DNA of 8,354 nt from a virus (taxonomy: Duplodnaviria > Heunggongvirae > Uroviricota > Caudoviricetes), in the IMG/VR virus record IMGVR_UViG_2671180574_000007, positions 1 through 8,354 of that record; one strand, written 5' to 3'. Made by a program: the position numbers and the translations under genes. The notes beneath the pieces are model-generated. The model was not told the DNA's origin, did no database searches, and saw nothing but the letters and a program-made list of their open reading frames with translations. Every line of letters begins with the position of its first letter. The stretch's first letter is position 1. Below are positions 615 through 8,354 of the stretch, piece by piece.

Positions 615-1673
615 ATGCTTAATACTGTAAAAATATCCAGTTGTGAGTTAATCAACGCCGACTGCCTGGAATTTATCCGGTCGTTACCCGAAAATTCTGT
701 TGACCTGATAGTCACGGACCCGCCGTACTTTAAAGTGAAGCCTGAGGGCTGGGATAACCAGTGGAAGGGCGACGATGATTACCTGAAGTGGCTGGACCAG
801 TGTCTGGCGCAGTTCTGGCGGGTGCTGAAACCTGCCGGAAGTCTTTACCTGTTCTGTGGTCATCGCCTGGCATCTGATATCGAAATCATGATGCGTGAAC
901 GCTTCAGTGTGCTGAACCATATTATCTGGGCGAAGCCGTCCGGACGCTGGAACGGATGCAACAAGGAAAGCCTGCGGGCGTATTTCCCCGCCACAGAGCG
1001 CATTCTGTTCGCGGAACATTATCAGGGGCCGTATCGTCCGAAAGATGCCGGGTATGCGGCGAAGGGCAGTGCACTGAAACAGCATGTGATGGCCCCGCTG
1101 ATTTCTTACTTTCGTGATGCGCGAGCTGCCCTGGGGATAACGGCAAAACAGATTGCAGATGCCACAGGAAAGAAAAACATGGTGTCGCACTGGTTCAGTG
1201 CCGGTCAGTGGCAGTTGCCGAATGAAAGCGATTATCTGAAATTACAGGCGCTGTTTGCCCGGGTGGCAGAAGAGAAGCATCGGCGTGGTGAACTGGAAAA
1301 GCTCCACCACCAGCTGGTGGATACGTATACCTCACTGAACCGGCAGTATGCGGAGCTGCTGAGTGAATATAAACATCTGCGGCGGTATTTTGGCGTGACG
1401 GTGCAGGTGCCGTATACCGATGTGTGGACGCATAAACCGGTGCAGTTCTATCCCGGGAAACATCCGTGCGAAAAACCGGCAGAAATGCTGCAGCAGATAA
1501 TCAGCGCTAGCAGTCGTCCGGGTGACCTGATTGCAGATTTTTTCATGGGGTTGGGTTCGACAGTGAAAGCGGCACTGGCGCTCGGGCGTCGTGCAATTGG
1601 CGTTGAGCTGGAGACTGAACGTTTTGAGCAGACGGTTCGGGAAGTACAGGATTTAGTCAGCCAGAACGGATGA
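615..1673 (+). CDS. DNA methyltransferase, beta-class (motif IV before motif I), probable N6-adenine specificity; orphan (no adjacent restriction enzyme)
   Basis: 352-aa ORF; N-terminal LIVTDPPYF (motif IV, DPPY) and C-terminal DFFMGLGST (motif I, FxGxG AdoMet site); central insert with HTH-like/coiled-coil segment typical of a target-recognition region. Weak Shine-Dalgarno. Confidence 0.88.
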   Translation: MLNTVKISSCELINADCLEFIRSLPENSVDLIVTDPPYFKVKPEGWDNQWKGDDDYLKWLDQCLAQFWRVLKPAGSLYLFCGHRLASDIEIMMRERFSVLNHIIWAKPSGRWNGCNKESLRAYFPATERILFAEHYQGPYRPKDAGYAAKGSALKQHVMAPLISYFRDARAALGITAKQIADATGKKNMVSHWFSAGQWQLPNESDYLKLQALFARVAEEKHRRGELEKLHHQLVDTYTSLNRQYAELLSEYKHLRRYFGVTVQVPYTDVWTHKPVQFYPGKHPCEKPAEMLQQIISASSRPGDLIADFFMGLGSTVKAALALGRRAIGVELETERFEQTVREVQDLVSQNG

Positions 1674-2618: not shown

Positions 2619-3100
2619 GCCTGTTTTGCGACCTCATTCACTACGTCATTTTTTACCATCCGGCTGATAATCTGATTACGCAAATCGTCAATAATTGACT
2701 GCACTCTGTTTACTGCCATCGGTTTAAGCCCGGCATCACGTGCCAGAATATTGGGGAGTTTTGCCAGTTCCTCGCTTACGATTTCCCCCCATATAGCCAT
2801 CTCTTTTCGCACATCATCGGCGGGTATGAGTTGCGCCGTTTCCTGTTCGAACTTGAGGCGCTCACGTTCGGACTGATACCAGGCCTTACGGTCATGTGGC
2901 TCCATTTCTTCCAGTGATGCCGGAACGGGAAGATCAAGAAAACAGGTCAGAATGTCAGTCACCCGATAGAGTTTCAGCTTGTCATGCCCTCCGGCTGGCT
3001 GGATGTTTTTCAGCCTTGCCGCCGCAGTCTGACGACATATTCCCGCTATCGCCGCCAGTTGATTAATGTTCAGCATCAGATTTTTCAGTTCTCGATCCAT
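2615..3100 (-). CDS. Terminase small subunit, lambda Nu1-like (DNA packaging protein), about 161 aa
   Basis: Start placed at the internal ATG (3098-3100) preceded by GGAG 5 nt upstream; the six-frame ORF extends to 3187 without a Shine-Dalgarno. N-terminal HTH pattern LNINQLAAIAGICRQTAAARLKN...GG..KL.LY and downstream helical region align by eye with lambda Nu1. Confidence 0.65.
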   Translation of the reverse strand: MDRELKNLMLNINQLAAIAGICRQTAAARLKNIQPAGGHDKLKLYRVTDILTCFLDLPVPASLEEMEPHDRKAWYQSERERLKFEQETAQLIPADDVRKEMAIWGEIVSEELAKLPNILARDAGLKPMAVNRVQSIIDDLRNQIISRMVKNDVVNEVAKQA

Positions 3101-3371
3101 ACCCGCTCCAGAATGTTTTAAACATGCATCTTGCGAACAACTTTCAGAAGAGTTCAAAAAATGCGCTATATGTTGAGCATAAAACAAGCAAAACTAACAT
3201 ACCAAAAATAAAAATACTTAAAATTCAATATCATATGAAGATGATGATGACGAATGAAAATGCAAAAACTAGCCTTTTTCCGCGCCGCTCCCGCCCCGCG
3301 GCAGGCCACCTCACCGGGAGGACCCACCCAAAAAAGGCGACTGTCACTATTGTTTATGCTCCATGAGCGAC

Positions 3372-3393
3372 AAAACCGCCCGCAGGCGGTTTT
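3372..3393. terminator. Bidirectional intrinsic terminator hairpin
   Basis: aaaaccgcc-cgca-ggcggtttt: 9-bp stem including A/T arms, 4-nt loop; T-run on both strands; lies about 18 nt downstream of the gpI-like stop on the minus strand. Confidence 0.65.
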
Positions 3394-3410
3394 ACATAAA
3401 ACGTTTTGTA

Positions 3411-4052
3411 TCAGCGACCAATCACCACAATCTGGCCGCCATCCCCTTCATCTGCCGTGCTGATCTCTTGCGAAATCACCCGCGACCCGACGCGCATTTC
3501 ACCGTACAGAACAGGCACAACATTGCCCTGGGCAACCATGTTATCCAGAGAGGAGAAATAGGTGTTCTGCTTACCGTTATCCGTGGTGCTGGCTGTTGCT
3601 GTGCTGGCTTTCGGTGCCAGCATCTGTGCAACACCACCAAGTGTCATCGCCGCCCCCATTGAAAAGAGAATGTCACTGAAAGCGATACTGATTCCTGGCA
3701 TCCAGATTGCCGTAGCAATCAGCGCCGCACCAAGCACCGCCTGAAACACGCCGCCACTTTTGGCACCAGCCAGACGCGGTACGATGTGGATCACGGCACC
3801 ATTTTCCAGCGGTTCATTAAGACGGGCTGATAATTCGTTTTCGCCTGTATCACGCCCGGCAATACGCACCTGATACCAACCATCGCTCAGTTTCTGACGA
3901 AACGCTGGGATCTGCATGGCCAGCGCCCGGATGGCTTCGGCCCCCGTTTTCACATGAAGATCGATGCGGCGGCCAAATCGTTGTAAATCCCCGTAAAGGC
4001 AGATGCGTGCCATGCCCGGTGACGCCAGAGGGAGTGTGTGCGTCGCTGCCAT
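3411..4052 (-). CDS. Phage lambda gpI-like tail (tip) assembly protein
   Basis: 213-aa ORF with N-terminal ubiquitin-like region, central hydrophobic Gly/Ala-rich segment and C-terminal block TTDNGKQNTYFSSLDNMVAQGNV.PVLYGEMRVGSRV.SQEISTADEG that matches lambda tail assembly protein I as recalled from memory; GAGAGG Shine-Dalgarno about 10 nt upstream. Confidence 0.6.
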   Translation of the reverse strand: MAATHTLPLASPGMARICLYGDLQRFGRRIDLHVKTGAEAIRALAMQIPAFRQKLSDGWYQVRIAGRDTGENELSARLNEPLENGAVIHIVPRLAGAKSGGVFQAVLGAALIATAIWMPGISIAFSDILFSMGAAMTLGGVAQMLAPKASTATASTTDNGKQNTYFSSLDNMVAQGNVVPVLYGEMRVGSRVISQEISTADEGDGGQIVVIGR

Positions 4053-4141
4053 TTGTCGGTATACCTCTCTCGTTTGCTCAGTTGTTCAGGAATATGGTGC
4101 GGCAGCTCGCCGCCCCACGTGTTCAAAGTACCGCCTTGTTG

Positions 4142-6055
4142 TCATGCTCCATTCGATTTCAGCAATCCACGATAATCGAGGGCCGCGACACCTGCATCTA
4201 TGCGCACCTTCCAGGCGACACCATCAACAGTAAAGCCCACCTGCTCCTCAAGATATGGCGTATCCATACCATCAAGATAAGCGACTTCTATTGTGTCCAT
4301 CCCCTTAGCTGCGGCTACATACCATTCCTTGCTATTGGCCTTATCAAGACGTGGCTCAACAATTACTTCTGCCATATCTTTCACAACGTTAATGATGCCG
4401 GGGTTCTGATTGATAGTGCCCTCATCACCAACCGGAAAGACTGATGACGATGACAGAATGGCGCGACGCGCGGCAGATTCCAGCGCGGCAGGGACCAGAA
4501 CAAAAGCAGGGGTAATATTCAGTGAGTCGCCGTTAGCATCCTCCTGGAGGCGCATCAGCTTACGGGCTTCATCAAGCCCCACCATGTCCATATCCTTCGC
4601 AATAAGATTTTTATGATCGGCATGGAATAACGCTTTACCATCCGTAAACTTGCCGTTGCTGGTTAACAGGAGATAAACCAGATTGCCAACTGTTCTGGCG
4701 GCTGCGCGTCCCATCGCCATGGGGATTGTAGTTAACTGGGTCAGGTCATCGTTGATAATGGCCTGACGGGTAACGGAAAAAATATTCCCGTACGTGGCCA
4801 GCGCAATAGGTACACCTTTATCGCTGGTGGTGATGTATTTATATTCCGCACCTTCCGGTACTTTATCCAGCTTTGAAAAACCATTCAGACCAACGCGCTT
4901 TGCTTCATGAAAGTTTGAAAGCGAACCGGTACGCGTCCATTTCTGGAACGTTTCGCCGCTGTCCTGCCAGCCTTTCAGTACAGATTTTTCAGCCCCACCA
5001 GCCAGAATATGAGAAAAATCACTGCTGCTGTGTGTAAAAGCCGCATTAACAACCTGCGAGCGATTAATAAAACCACTCACAGTGATACCACGATCAACCA
5101 GTGATGCCTGGGCCATTTCAAAAAGGCTCATCATCGCGTAAGGGTTGCCTCGTTCAGGGCGTTCATACCCAAGACGGGAATAAAGCCCCTGACGAATTGC
5201 ATCACCTGTTATGTTTCCGTTTCCGGCATAGATATGAGGCGGGGTATTTTTATTGGATGGCGTGGACTCGCGCCCCAGCTCGTTCAACAGCTTTTCACGG
5301 GCCATTTCCGGTGTACATGATGCATCTTCCAGACACGCCATTTTGATCCCGTCGTAACGACTGCCGAACAGGCTAAACACTTCACTTATTCCATTGATGC
5401 GTTTCTGTTCATTACCAGCAATATTTGCCGCTCCCTGTGGCGGTGTAATCATTCCTTTAATGGTTTCCGGCATATGTAAAAAATCTCCTGTGCGCTTCGA
5501 TTCAATTCGCGCCATTGCTCTGACGGATGGCAACAATTCATCAGCAAAACCGTGCTTAAGGCATTCTTTCCCGTCCATCCAGGTTTCATCTTCCAGCATG
5601 GCGGTAATTTCCTGTGCTGATTTGCCCGTTTTTCTGGCATAAGCAGGGACTAACACGGTTTCCACCTTATCCAGCAAATCAGCATAATCACGCATATCAC
5701 CAGCATTTCCGCCAGAGATACCCCACGGCTTATGTATCATCATCATGGCGTTTTCCGGCATCACAACACGATCGCCAGCCATTGCGACCACCGAAGCCAT
5801 TGAAGCCGCAACACCATCGATATAAACCGTAATGTCTGCCGGATGATTCCGTAGCAGGTTATAGATGGCGATGCCTTCAAACACATCACCACCTGGTGAA
5901 TGGATCCTCAGATTGATATGTGAAACATCGCCAAGGGCTTTCAGGTCTTCCGCGAACTGCTTTGCAGTAACACCGAAGCCGCCAATCTCCTCATAGATAG
6001 ATATATCCGCCGCTCCGCGAACATCCGCCGCCTTAATGGTGTACCAGCGATTCAT
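4142..6055 (-). CDS. Fusion protein: ClpP-like (S14) prohead protease N-terminal domain plus HK97-fold major capsid protein C-terminal domain
   Basis: 637 aa; N-terminal ...LRIHSPGGDVFEGIAIYN...GVAASMASVV...MMIHKPWG... carries ClpP catalytic Ser/His context; C-terminal roughly 330 aa has capsid-like architecture (motif-level assignment, weaker); ATGA overlap with upstream small ORF. Confidence 0.75.
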   Translation of the reverse strand: MNRWYTIKAADVRGAADISIYEEIGGFGVTAKQFAEDLKALGDVSHINLRIHSPGGDVFEGIAIYNLLRNHPADITVYIDGVAASMASVVAMAGDRVVMPENAMMMIHKPWGISGGNAGDMRDYADLLDKVETVLVPAYARKTGKSAQEITAMLEDETWMDGKECLKHGFADELLPSVRAMARIESKRTGDFLHMPETIKGMITPPQGAANIAGNEQKRINGISEVFSLFGSRYDGIKMACLEDASCTPEMAREKLLNELGRESTPSNKNTPPHIYAGNGNITGDAIRQGLYSRLGYERPERGNPYAMMSLFEMAQASLVDRGITVSGFINRSQVVNAAFTHSSSDFSHILAGGAEKSVLKGWQDSGETFQKWTRTGSLSNFHEAKRVGLNGFSKLDKVPEGAEYKYITTSDKGVPIALATYGNIFSVTRQAIINDDLTQLTTIPMAMGRAAARTVGNLVYLLLTSNGKFTDGKALFHADHKNLIAKDMDMVGLDEARKLMRLQEDANGDSLNITPAFVLVPAALESAARRAILSSSSVFPVGDEGTINQNPGIINVVKDMAEVIVEPRLDKANSKEWYVAAAKGMDTIEVAYLDGMDTPYLEEQVGFTVDGVAWKVRIDAGVAALDYRGLLKSNGA

Positions 6056-6361: not shown

Positions 6362-6387
6362 ACAAAAAAGCCGGATTTCTCCGGCTT
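6362..6387 (-). terminator. Rho-independent terminator on the minus strand between the origin and the capsid operon
   Basis: 8-bp stem aagccgga/tccggctt (6368-6375/6380-6387), 4-nt loop; on the minus strand followed by TTTTTTGTG. Confidence 0.7.
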
Positions 6388-6514
6388 CTGTCACTCGTTG
6401 CTTAAAACGGTATGTTATCCCCGTACGGATCATCATTCCCCGCCTGTTGTTTTGGTGTGCTTCGCTGTCATAGGCTTTATCTCACAGCAGTAAATTAAAA
6501 TTTTTGCGTTTTAA

Positions 6515-6745
6515 CCCTTCACCTGTTCACCTTTTGATATTTTCTCTATTAATTCATAATGTTAAGGGGTGAACAGTTTCAAAAAAACTATTCACCAACT
6601 GTTCACCACTGTTCACCCTTGAAGCTCAATAAACAATCAAAAAGGTGAACAGTGAATAGTTTGGTGAACAGTTCATAAATAACTGCTCACCCTATAATAT
6701 ACTGATATAAAAGATATTTATGACAGGGTGAACAGTGGTGAACAG
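6515..6745. repeat. Iteron cluster: putative P4-type replication origin (octamer TGTTCACC / GGTGAACA)
   Basis: Perfect octamers at 6524-6531(+), 6568-6575(-), 6600-6607(+), 6610-6617(+), 6644-6651(-), 6663-6670(-), 6727-6734(-), 6737-6744(-), plus degenerate copies (6517-6523, 6590-6596, 6652-6659, 6684-6691); AT-rich flanks; directly downstream of the primase stop. Confidence 0.8.
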
Positions 6746-6758
6746 TTATTCCATAAGT

Positions 6759-8354
6759 TTAATTTTTGCTATCGTCATTAGTGACCGATACACATGATGG
6801 CATCCAGTCTTCTGATTCCTCCGTCAGTGTCACGTTTGAACGCAAACCGTGCTTCGTTTTCCGTTTCATATACTCCCTGCCATATTCCGCCATTGCCCCC
6901 GGCATATCTTTACCGAAGCGCGTCAGTGTTACAGGTTTACCAAACCCATGTGCCCTCATATAAGCCAGATAGGCATGATAGAGATACCTGCGTGGGCTGA
7001 ATGGCACAATTTCAGCATTACCCACTAACAGGCCATCACACATTACCGACGCCATGAGATAGCCGCAGAAGTCCACCAGCGAATCCCCCTCTCGCTTTAT
7101 CGCCAGTGCTTCTTCAGATTTCTGCTGCTCATATAACAGGCGTCTGGCTTCGTCCTGGTCAGCAAACCGTGTAAGCAGATGGCGAATCACTACCGCCAGC
7201 TCACCTTCTATTTTTTCCGCCAGCATTGGATCACGTTCGTTCTCCGGTACAACTTCCGAAAAATTGAATATCACCCGACGACGTGAGATCCCCCCACTGC
7301 GGTCACTGAATGACATGGCGTTATTGTTAACCGCCAGCACTACTGCCGGAATACGCGTTGAGTAGGGGGCTTTGTGTTTCGGGTCAATTGCCACCTTGTC
7401 ACCGCCTGTAATAGCCTTAATCCCTGCCCCATCACCAGCGTAGCGGGTCATATCCGGCATGATAATCAGCGAAAAGCCAACCACTAACGCGCGTTCCCTT
7501 GCATCTTCCAGCGCCTTCATGCTTGCCGATACTGTGTTGGCCTTACCCGCCAGCATGGTGCAAATCTCCGCCATCACGCTTTTACCACTTCCCCCTGGAC
7601 CTGTTACCTCAATGAATAACTGCCAGTCGTACCGGTTCGCCAGCACCATGAATAATGCAGCCAGTACGCGATCCGCCTTGCGGTCATTCTCAGCCACCGA
7701 ACGGCGTAACCACTTCCAGAAATTCGGCGCATGTGTTGCCAGCGTTTCCCCCTCTGCTGGTGGGCTGAAAGGTAATTCACTGGCAATTAACAACCAGTCG
7801 TTTTTGTTATGCTCCCGAAAATTACCTGTTCTGGTATCAAATACCCCGTTACTGAATCCAATCAGGTTACGGGCTGTATTCCCCATAACAGGCAAACTTA
7901 ACTTCATGGTATCGACCGCCGATTTAATGGCGTTCTGCGAATAGCTGATCTCCGCATCAATGAAAATCTGCGCCATAGCTCGCTGTAATTCTTTATCCTG
8001 TACTGGCTCCCATACAACGCCGTTGTAATGGTGAACAGTGTCAGAGTCAGCATGAATCGCCAGTTCACCGCCATAATGTGCCAGGAGAACTTCGCCGCGT
8101 TGACTTGCTCCCATCTGGTTAAGCGCCAGTGATGAAGCGTTATCGTCTTTTACCCGCTCTTTTTTCTTTACAGGCAGTTCAACTACCTTTTTCTTTTCCG
8201 CCAGCTCTGCCCGTTCACGTTCCAGATATTCACGCCAGTTCTCCCGTTTCTGGCTGTGCATTCCTTCAGGGTAATAATCAGCATCCCTGACACCTGCCTC
8301 TGCCAGTTTCTGCCCGATGGTATTAACAAGCCCCGGACGCAATAACCCCGCCTG
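6759..8354 (-). CDS. Primase/helicase of the phage-plasmid P4 alpha family (C-terminal part; N-terminus beyond the window end)
   Basis: Reading frame stays open to the window edge (the 8342 start in the ORF track is a TTG, not the true start); Walker A GPGGSGKS; stop TAA at 6759-6761; followed by matching iterons. Confidence 0.85.
   Translation of the reverse strand, partial: QAGLLRPGLVNTIGQKLAEAGVRDADYYPEGMHSQKRENWREYLERERAELAEKKKVVELPVKKKERVKDDNASSLALNQMGASQRGEVLLAHYGGELAIHADSDTVHHYNGVVWEPVQDKELQRAMAQIFIDAEISYSQNAIKSAVDTMKLSLPVMGNTARNLIGFSNGVFDTRTGNFREHNKNDWLLIASELPFSPPAEGETLATHAPNFWKWLRRSVAENDRKADRVLAALFMVLANRYDWQLFIEVTGPGGSGKSVMAEICTMLAGKANTVSASMKALEDARERALVVGFSLIIMPDMTRYAGDGAGIKAITGGDKVAIDPKHKAPYSTRIPAVVLAVNNNAMSFSDRSGGISRRRVIFNFSEVVPENERDPMLAEKIEGELAVVIRHLLTRFADQDEARRLLYEQQKSEEALAIKREGDSLVDFCGYLMASVMCDGLLVGNAEIVPFSPRRYLYHAYLAYMRAHGFGKPVTLTRFGKDMPGAMAEYGREYMKRKTKHGLRSNVTLTEESEDWMPSCVSVTNDDSKN

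Follow-up and report, generated by a model that had tools for sequence, protein, structure and literature searches.

A probable lambda-type cohesive-end packaging site upstream of the small terminase gene in a phage satellite family of Escherichia coli

Introduction

Phage-inducible chromosomal islands (PICIs) from Escherichia coli that combine lambda-like cosQ and cosN sequences with a private cosB, located beside the gene of a winged-helix specificity protein, are well established (PMC6092414, PMC6739421; review PMC9026076, of which Table S1 was used here). In chimeras of phages lambda and 21, the N half of the small terminase subunit (TerS) sets the specificity for cosB and the C half sets that for the large subunit (TerL) (PMC9026076). 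A sequence at the cos position that is common to satellite and helper has also been noted (bioRxiv 10.1101/2022.07.18.500453). Here we analyse a stretch of 8354 nucleotides (nt), IMG/VR record IMGVR_UViG_2671180574_000007, which we call the window. It covers most of a PICI-like phage satellite adjoining a CAU-anticodon tRNA gene at 1714-1789, and the sub-stretch under study, 3101-3370, lies directly upstream of a gene for a TerS of the DUF1441 family. We propose that positions 3101-3325 of the minus strand are probably the lambda-type cohesive-end packaging site of this satellite of about 11 kb, consisting of cosQ, cosN and a 182-bp cosB that ends at the TerS start codon. That the site is homologous to lambda cos appears quite likely from the alignments, and we lean slightly towards an island TerS that acts on its own and not through the TerS of a helper.

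Results

The candidate site was delimited by its composition. A sequence-only reading of this DNA had described a G/C-rich block at 3262-3330 and a very AT-rich tract at 3188-3260. Both exist: positions 3280-3329 contain 84% G+C, the highest value for any 50 nt of the 8354, and the tract contains 23% G+C, with the most A+T-rich 50 nt of the window (16% G+C) at 3190-3239. The minus-strand string quoted for the block is the exact reverse complement of 3280-3329, so the start given for it was about 18 nt too low and the real one is close to 3280. Its distance from the TerS start, put at about 170-230 bp, agrees with the 180-229 nt that we measured upstream of the ATG at 3100.

The minus strand of the G+C block aligns to the core of lambda cos. 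With slashes at the limits of the cohesive end, lambda reads GGGTCCTTTCCGGTGATCCGACAGGTTACG/GGGCGGCGACCT/CGCGGG and the window reads GGGTCCTC-CCGGTGAGGTGGCCTGCCGCG/GGGCGGGAGCGG/CGCGGA; common to both are cosQ, CCGGTGA, CG/GGGCGG and the CGCGG past the 12-mer. The spacer between cosQ and cosN is 20 nt long, and cosQ is nearly invariant in an alignment of 64 distinct upstream sequences from related loci. The alignment predicts a 12-nt 5' cohesive end at 3296-3285, with nicks at 3297/3296 on the minus strand and 3285/3284 on the plus strand. By a hand count on the sequence, 8 of the 16 positions of cosN obey two-fold symmetry, as compared with 10 of 16 in lambda. The window has a single instance of the pattern GGGTCCT-N18-24-CGGGGCGG, against 0.00 instances in 200 shuffles, and the cosN 19-mer is unique in the window (chance expectation, 0.01). 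Counted from the predicted nick, the TerS ATG is at bp 197 and that of lambda Nu1 at bp 191, which bears out the earlier suggestion that cosN and cosB of lambda lie at a similar distance upstream of Nu1.

Deposited phage genomes provide a second line of evidence. The records of cdtI and Tritos start with GGGCGGGAGCGT and end with ..CCTGCCACG, precisely the junction that lambda predicts. For Hafnia phage yong2, the deposited sequence opens at CGCGG (bp 13), 12 nt further in, and has its 12-mer at the right end; this offset is what a 12-nt stagger predicts under the other convention for writing the ends. Two other records were discarded as evidence for a terminus: that of mEp460 has an arbitrary start about 27 nt before terS, and that of mEp460_4F5 starts 5 nt away from the junction. 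The DNA under study matches the non-coding DNA between the lysis genes and TerS-TerL in the lambdoid phages phi458 and VT1-Sakai, as well as the stretch immediately upstream of TerS-TerL in mEp460 and its derivative. Compared with lambdoid-phage cos regions, as had been envisaged, it shows 76-94% nucleotide identity over cosQ-cosN and parts of cosB. The TerL proteins of the related phages carry the Pfam domains GpA_ATPase and GpA_nuclease. TerL proteins of the gpA family are the class that makes 5' cohesive ends, and this points to a cos site and not to a pac site. The same cohesive-end deduction was made for mEp213 and LLS (PMC12315714). Altogether, the lambda alignment, the record ends, the geometry and the conservation argue for what the sequence-only reading had suspected, a lambda-like cos upstream of TerS whose cosN is G+C-rich and whose cosB is A+T-rich.

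We then asked how widely this arrangement is conserved. A scan with the TerS protein gave 85 related loci; the scan of genome contigs gave only 5, and the comparison was carried by the viral contigs. Of these loci, 72 have a strict cosQ-N20-cosN motif at 214-227 nt upstream from the TerS ATG; the misses include near-variants (cosQ GGCTCCT) and loci with too little upstream sequence. The loci form two classes, namely phages, in which TerS is followed by a TerL of 700 aa, and satellites, which have a fused capsid gene upstream, a PHROG-1561 gene downstream and no full TerL. In the window, cosQ and the 16-bp cosN are intact and the same as in most of the roughly 35 satellites, which occupy several integration sites. 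About ten satellites are helper-embedded, that is, they sit inside the TerL gene of a prophage. The fully annotated case is that of E. coli B1-56 (chromosome 2376039-2407239), whose satellite TerS is identical to that of the window; this satellite interrupts a lambdoid prophage in its gpA-type TerL gene, with which it is co-oriented and which it splits into 5' and 3' parts. As the window copy is located by a tRNA gene, the same lineage uses both chromosomal and helper-embedded sites. DNA similar to the region under study is found in about 1,560 of 5,426 complete E. coli genomes, prophages and satellites being counted together.

The cosB equivalent can be divided into blocks (Table 1). The block at bp 44-57, a candidate TerS-binding site, has a CATCATC/CACCACC core that is kept in all cosB types, including that of Hafnia phage yong2, and lies at the position of lambda R3 (PMC9026076). 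The IHF-like position is occupied by a perfect WATCAANNNNTTR in the phi458 and L015 types and contains one mismatch in the L042, L053, majority-phage and VT1-Sakai types. Further downstream lies a dyad. Phage L052 has it as GTATGTTGA..TCAACATAT and the majority phage type as TATGTCGAA..TTCGACATC, which amounts to a change of T:A to C:G on both arms (TATGTTGA/TCAACATA versus TATGTCGA/TCGACAT by type); the match in the window is only 6 of 9. An 11-nt indel, corresponding to one helical turn, sets the cosB type of the window apart from the other types.

The comparison of cosB types with the halves of TerS showed TerS to be modular. Between the phage L052 and the window, the N half of TerS (residues 1-94) is 100% identical and cosB 97% identical, and the identity of the C half is only 51%. 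At least four types of N half (those of the window, L053-like loci, phi458 and VT1-Sakai) are found fused to the satellite C half. In each case examined the upstream cosB type matches the N-half type as it does in phages, and cosQ, cosN and the C half stay satellite-like. In B1-56, cosQ and the 45 nt that precede the ATG are common to helper and satellite, as is cosN with the exception of the final base of the cohesive end; the middle of cosB and the N half of TerS differ. We therefore take the A+T-rich tract for the cosB equivalent, which passes between elements in a single cassette with the winged-helix N half of TerS. The Spearman correlation between TerS-half identity and cosB identity is high; linkage and shared ancestry confound it, and we did not count it as evidence of function.

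The 161-aa TerS of the island matches Pfam DUF1441 (1.7e-36) and PHROG 141, "terminase small subunit" (1.5e-57), and its homologue is located directly upstream of the gpA-type TerL gene in phages. Its reading frame is intact and 96-100% conserved. The N half is a predicted winged helix-turn-helix: an AlphaFold2 model based on a 28-sequence alignment (predicted local distance difference test score, 79.7) shows an N-terminal beta-alpha-alpha-beta-beta-alpha arrangement, followed by long helices. The protein falls outside Pfam Phage_Nu1, and comparison with chains of the Protein Data Bank, both as a single sequence and as a profile, gave no match to Nu1, RppC or the HK97 TerS. We know of no solved structure and no mapped binding site in the DUF1441 family, and literature searches returned only unrelated phage papers for DUF1441 and only unrelated G-quadruplex and primer papers for the cohesive-end string GGGCGGGAGCGG.

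The C half of TerS (residues ~95-161, encoded by 2615-2900) is satellite-specific. The sequence DDVRKEMAIWGEIVSEELAKLPNILARDAGLKPMAVNRVQSIIDDLRNQIISRMVKNDVVNEVAKQA is common to all satellite TerS proteins and about 50% identical to the half that is common to all phage TerS proteins of the family; among 50,697 phage records its best match does not exceed 60% identity. The exchanged cassette is always fused to it at a conserved central joint, ..KFEQETAQLIPA/DD... In addition, the place taken by TerL in phages is filled here by the gene of a 95-aa PHROG-1561 protein; its ATG and the stop codon of TerS overlap (ATGA). Most satellites of the group whose locus runs past TerS have this gene, and the protein is essentially absent from the 50,697 phage records, with one weak match in a Klebsiella phage.

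The sequence-only reading had also seen the interval as bracketed by an inverted repeat, 3175-3187 and 3350-3361. A repeat does exist, in a weaker form than described, since its arms of 13 and 12 nt can be paired only by bulging out 1 nt, and perfect pairing is confined to a core of 9 nt; the bracketing role did not hold. A perfect 9-nt repeat occurs in 11-32% of dinucleotide shuffles, and a bulged 13/12 repeat, defined post hoc, in 1.6-5.4%. This last figure, and the overlap of the left arm with a conserved cosB element, would speak for a functional bracket, be it a pair of protein-binding sites or a recombination boundary. However, both arms occur together only in a near-identical sub-group that carries a tail-gene insertion. 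The left arm varies among relatives (ATGCTC, GTGTTC, TTGGTC, TTGTTC) independently of the right one and with no compensating change. The order in most satellites is the capsid stop GGAGCATGA, CAACAA, a G+C terminator hairpin GGGCGGCGATAGCCGCC, a run of seven T and cosQ. The window retains the original copy of this capsid end at its own capsid-gene end near 4142, and the segment upstream of cosQ is a diverged duplicate of it, which makes the right arm a relic. In phages, unrelated sequence occupies that place and the homology ends around the cosQ side. A functional bracket is thus scarcely credible, and we regard the repeat, on these comparisons, as coincidental and outside the site.

Table 1. 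Features of the window; bp values are counted from the predicted nick
Feature	Positions	Strand	Remarks
D5/P4-type primase gene	8342-6759	-	
Origin (ori) with GGTGAACAG iterons	6520-6760		immediately downstream of the primase gene
Small PHROG-4934 gene		-	between ori and the protease/capsid fusion
Fused ClpP-protease/major-capsid gene	6055-4142	-	
Lambda-I-like tail-assembly gene	4052-3411	-	
Intrinsic-terminator hairpin	3372-3393	-	9-bp stem, fold z-score -3.0; after the tail-I-like gene; upstream limit of the cos region
Intergenic region under study			between the tail-assembly gene and the TerS gene
Diverged duplicate of capsid-gene end and terminator, GGAGCATAAACAATAGTGACAGTCGCCTTTTTT	3330-3361	-	holds the right repeat arm; outside the site
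cosQ heptamer GGGTCCT	3325-3319	-	identical to lambda cosQ; first base 29 nt before the nick (lambda, 30 nt)
cosN, 16 bp, CG/GGGCGGGAGCGG/CG	3298-3283	-	aligns to lambda ACG/GGGCGGCGACCT/CGCGGG
Block beside cosN, bp 13-43, CGCGGAAAAAGGCTAGTTTTTGCATTTTCAT	3284-3254	-	1-3 differences from phages with another cosB/TerS type
cosB equivalent, 182 bp, A+T-rich (~31% G+C)	3282-3101	-	position and length (bp 13-196) as lambda cosB; presumed TerS-binding region
TCGTCATCATCATC, bp 44-57	3253-3240	-	at the lambda R3 position (bp 50-65); candidate primary TerS site
IHF-like position, bp 62-74	3235-3223	-	degenerate in the window, at least 2 mismatches; weak evidence
Positionally conserved dyad, bp 95-104 and 120-129	3202-3193 and 3177-3168	-	candidate R2/R1-like TerS sites
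Conserved block beside TerS, with ribosome-binding site GGAG	3101-3144	-	identical or nearly so in the satellite, phi458 and helper B1-56 types
TerS gene, DUF1441/PHROG 141, 161 aa	3100-2615	-	
Gene of the 95-aa PHROG-1561 protein	2618-2331	-	

The island genes all lie on the minus strand. A copy of the region under study that is 99.4% identical was found in E. coli DETEC-P169, in an island of about 11 kb that extends from a tyrosine-type integrase gene to the DUF1441 gene beside a CAU-anticodon tRNA gene. The features of a PICI-like satellite, that is, a small island at a tRNA gene with an integrase, regulators, a primase and ori, a few captured late genes and an incomplete virion set, are found in this near-identical island and in the gene content of the window (primase, iterons, protease-capsid, tail fragment, TerS). 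There is no TerL gene in the window or the island, and a portal gene and a full set of tail genes are likewise absent from the element. The array at 6520-6760, with at least eight iteron copies (GGTGAACAG or CTGTTCACC) in both orientations, is presumably the replication origin of the satellite. At about 11 kb, the island is roughly one quarter of a 42-45-kb helper genome and has its own protease/capsid fusion, with no portal and no TerL; packaging as a tetramer in helper heads and packaging in small capsids are thus both conceivable.

Several rearrangements were observed around the site. Between the capsid gene and cos, the minus strand of 3411-4141 carries an insertion of a lambda-I-like tail-assembly gene and a tail gene (annotated "truncated" in RefSeq in the DETEC-P169 copy). 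The insertion is confined to a satellite sub-group (the window, L022, L025, L032 and L033) and duplicated about 15 nt of the capsid-gene end. The DETEC-P169 island, the closest relative, has a second cos between ori and the capsid gene (L005, 14330-14600), with a cosB of the cdtI/Tritos type and no terS. This very segment, about 270 bp, has been cleanly deleted from the window at ~6370-6390, between two similar terminator-like hairpins (GCCGGAG.AATCCGGC-T run). The two-cos layout of the relative recalls EcCICFT073, which has cos1 and cos2. On the chromosomal side, an N6/N4 DNA methyltransferase gene (615-1673, plus strand) is located just upstream of the tRNA gene (plus strand), which is tRNA-Ile according to RefSeq and Met according to ARAGORN. 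DETEC-P169 carries mug where the window has the methyltransferase gene, so the host of the window differs there or bears another insertion.

Discussion

In an element derived from lambdoid phages, a cos site is to be expected upstream of terS. In the model favoured here, cosQ and cosN are the common currency of satellite and helper, and specificity resides in an exchangeable cassette made up of cosB and the N half of TerS. If lambda is a guide, TerS should recognise the A+T-rich cosB alone, and the G+C block with cosQ and cosN should be the substrate of helper TerL. The scenario that we propose is as follows. Once the island is induced and replicated into concatemers, its TerS would bind cosB, the candidate sites being the CATCATC block at the R3 position and the downstream dyad, possibly with bending by IHF. 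The bound TerS would recruit the gpA-family TerL of a lambdoid helper with a head of the mEp460/phi458/Gifsy-2 type. The helper TerL would then nick cosN at the predicted bonds, 12 bp apart, translocate the DNA and terminate at the next usable cosQ-cosN.

Several observations weigh against this proposal. For this element and this cos type it rests on homology, and the ends of the cdtI, Tritos and yong2 records are supporting but not proof, as their starts may have been set by analogy with lambda. Repeats of the lambda R3/R2/R1 type are not present in the cosB of the window, and its IHF-like site and dyad are degenerate. At 3299, which is the third base ahead of the nick, the window reads GCG/ where lambda and nearly all relatives have ACG/; this position lies outside the 16-bp cosN, and PICI-B (Murialdo and Feiss, Table S1) likewise has GCG/. 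In the relative L022, the first G of the cohesive end is changed to A besides. As for the protein, BLASTP of TerS against lambda Nu1 is not significant. The best Foldseek matches to the TerS model are MerR-family winged-helix proteins with weak scores (MtaN, E 0.06, probability 0.96), and hhalign places TerS residues 9-51 on Nu1 residues 2-47 with an E value of 0.002 and a probability of 13%, RppC aligning to the same region. The fold data are consistent with a Nu1-like DNA-binding domain and too weak for family membership. A consensus scan of 2900-3600 found no sigma-70-like promoter for TerS. Moreover, the satellite C half is unlike every phage TerS (about 50% identity), so that its binding to helper TerL is conjectural. 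Finally, cosB adjoins the N half, and linkage alone could lead to their co-inheritance; the repeated use of the same two joints, ~bp 25-30 past cosN and the conserved centre of TerS, suggests selection.

Among the alternatives, one accepts the cos site as genuine and concerns the mode of action of the island protein, which may be Rpp-like: mixed dimers or oligomers with helper TerS, the latter contributing the end that binds TerL, would read the island cosB and starve the helper of functional TerS. Rpp itself is a published precedent (PMC6739421, PMC9026076). The satellite C half is about 50% identical to that of phage TerS proteins, which adjoin a 99%-conserved TerL, and the central segment ERKAWYQSERERLKFEQETAQLIPA, nearly invariant in both classes, could mediate hetero-oligomers. 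However, the island protein is a full-length TerS homologue, not shortened (161 aa versus 163-164 aa), has no detectable relation to RppA or RppC beyond the winged-helix region, and follows a long cosB (ATG at bp 197) and not the short N15-like cosB of the Rpp islands (ATG at ~bp 102). We consider an Rpp-like protein rather unlikely. The locus might also be an inactive relic, a cos-terS fragment captured from a prophage with other late-gene debris and no longer used for packaging. Truncated tail-gene fragments do adjoin the site, the second cos of the closest relative has been lost, and the degenerate elements and off-consensus bases mentioned above would fit with decay. Yet most satellites, at several integration sites, have the same intact cosQ and 16-bp cosN as the window, the TerS frame is intact and conserved, and satellites have exchanged their cassette of cosB and TerS N half several times. 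Repeated replacement of the cassette in a maintained architecture argues for selection, and we find a relic distinctly improbable.

The remaining two alternatives reject cos altogether. If the G+C block served a structural or regulatory purpose, for example as a transcription terminator, RNA element or promoter-associated hairpin, the runs GCCTTTTTT and AAAAAGGC that flank it and the long imperfect hairpin (-35 kcal/mol) that can be drawn would find an explanation. The fold of the block is, however, no better than that of shuffled sequences on both strands (z -1.3 and -0.7), and the consensus scan made no terminator-like or promoter-like call at the block. The T run comes from the relic terminator and is absent in phages, and an Rfam scan of the whole window at E<=1 found only the tRNA and nothing in 3000-3500. 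As homology to lambda cos explains the sequence fully, we give a regulatory element very little credence. A pac site for headful packaging had been left open by the description "cos/pac-like", and recognition sites adjacent to TerS are typical of pac phages too. Only the cos part of that description stands: with a gpA-family TerL in the related phages, the cosQ and cosN of lambda and phage records with fixed ends at this place, a pac site is less credible still.

For the lambda-type cos, several consequences can be drawn. The packaging site of a common E. coli satellite family would be fixed to the base, a precise prediction for the mapping of ends and for cos-plasmid or transduction tools. 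The natural swaps of cosB and the N half against a constant cosN would be ready-made specificity chimeras for the DUF1441 TerS family. The satellite-only C half raises the question of how a satellite TerS recruits helper TerL, and together with its coupled 95-aa partner it is the part worth following. We tentatively suggest that the chimeric TerS might represent a third way of redirecting cos packaging, apart from Rpp and from copying the helper cos, in which a freely swapped, phage-derived cassette of at least four types is combined with a satellite-only C half and a coupled 95-aa protein. If this were true, the cosB-N-half cassette would decide which DNA is packaged, and the C half, possibly aided by the 95-aa protein, would capture the gpA-type TerL of the helper, compete successfully for it or poison the helper TerS oligomers.

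How does this locus compare with the known systems? With phage lambda it has in common an identical cosQ heptamer, the order and orientation of the elements, the CG/GGGCGG../CGCGG frame, the 12-nt stagger, a cosB of about 190 bp that runs up to the start of TerS (197 versus 191), a TerS with a predicted winged helix and, on the side of the related phages, a TerL of the gpA family. It differs from lambda at 5 of the 12 bases of the cohesive end (GGGCGGGAGCGG versus GGGCGGCGACCT), in a distance from cosQ to the nick that is 1 nt shorter, in the lack of lambda R3/R2/R1, in a TerS of the DUF1441 and not the Phage_Nu1 family, and in having no TerL of its own. The cos of the lambdoid phages with a DUF1441 TerS (mEp460, phi458, cdtI, Tritos, VT1-Sakai and mEp213/LLS, with Gifsy-2-like fused protease-capsid heads) is directly homologous and accompanied by the same TerS family, but the element of the window is a satellite without TerL, portal and full tail set and with a C half of its own. 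The satellites of Tommasini, Mageeney and Williams (bioRxiv 10.1101/2022.07.18.500453) have the same gene order, namely int, regulators, Icd-like gene, primase, ori and captured late genes. The element family matches their helper-embedded satellites and gram-negative PICIs, and members of this TerS group lie inside a helper TerL gene. Their model element, in contrast, is without terS, and cos anatomy and TerS chimerism are not described there.

The cos1 of Rpp-type PICIs (EcCICFT073 and relatives; Fillol-Salom 2018 and 2019; Murialdo and Feiss 2022) resembles the present site by its helper-like cosQ and cosN and by a cosB of its own that lies directly upstream of the gene of a winged-helix specificity protein. 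In those islands the cohesive end is that of lambda, cosB is short and N15-like, and an Rpp of 135-153 aa needs helper TerS as a partner, whereas this element has a long cosB and a full-length TerS homologue unrelated to Rpp at the sequence level. Its cohesive end is GGGCGGGAGCGG as against GGGCGGCGACCT or GGGCGGCAGACG in PICI-A/B/C, and hhalign gives probabilities of 3% with RppC and 0.9% with RppA, confined to the helix-turn-helix. In the pathogenicity islands of Staphylococcus aureus (SaPIs), the satellite has its own homologue of the helper TerS, TerS(S), beside its own recognition site and borrows helper TerL, as we propose here. The SaPI protein directs headful (pac) packaging with the help of Ppi; the present system is of the cos type, and the DNA-binding half of its TerS is shared with some phages. 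By analogy, it would work more like the SaPI TerS strategy transposed to cos.

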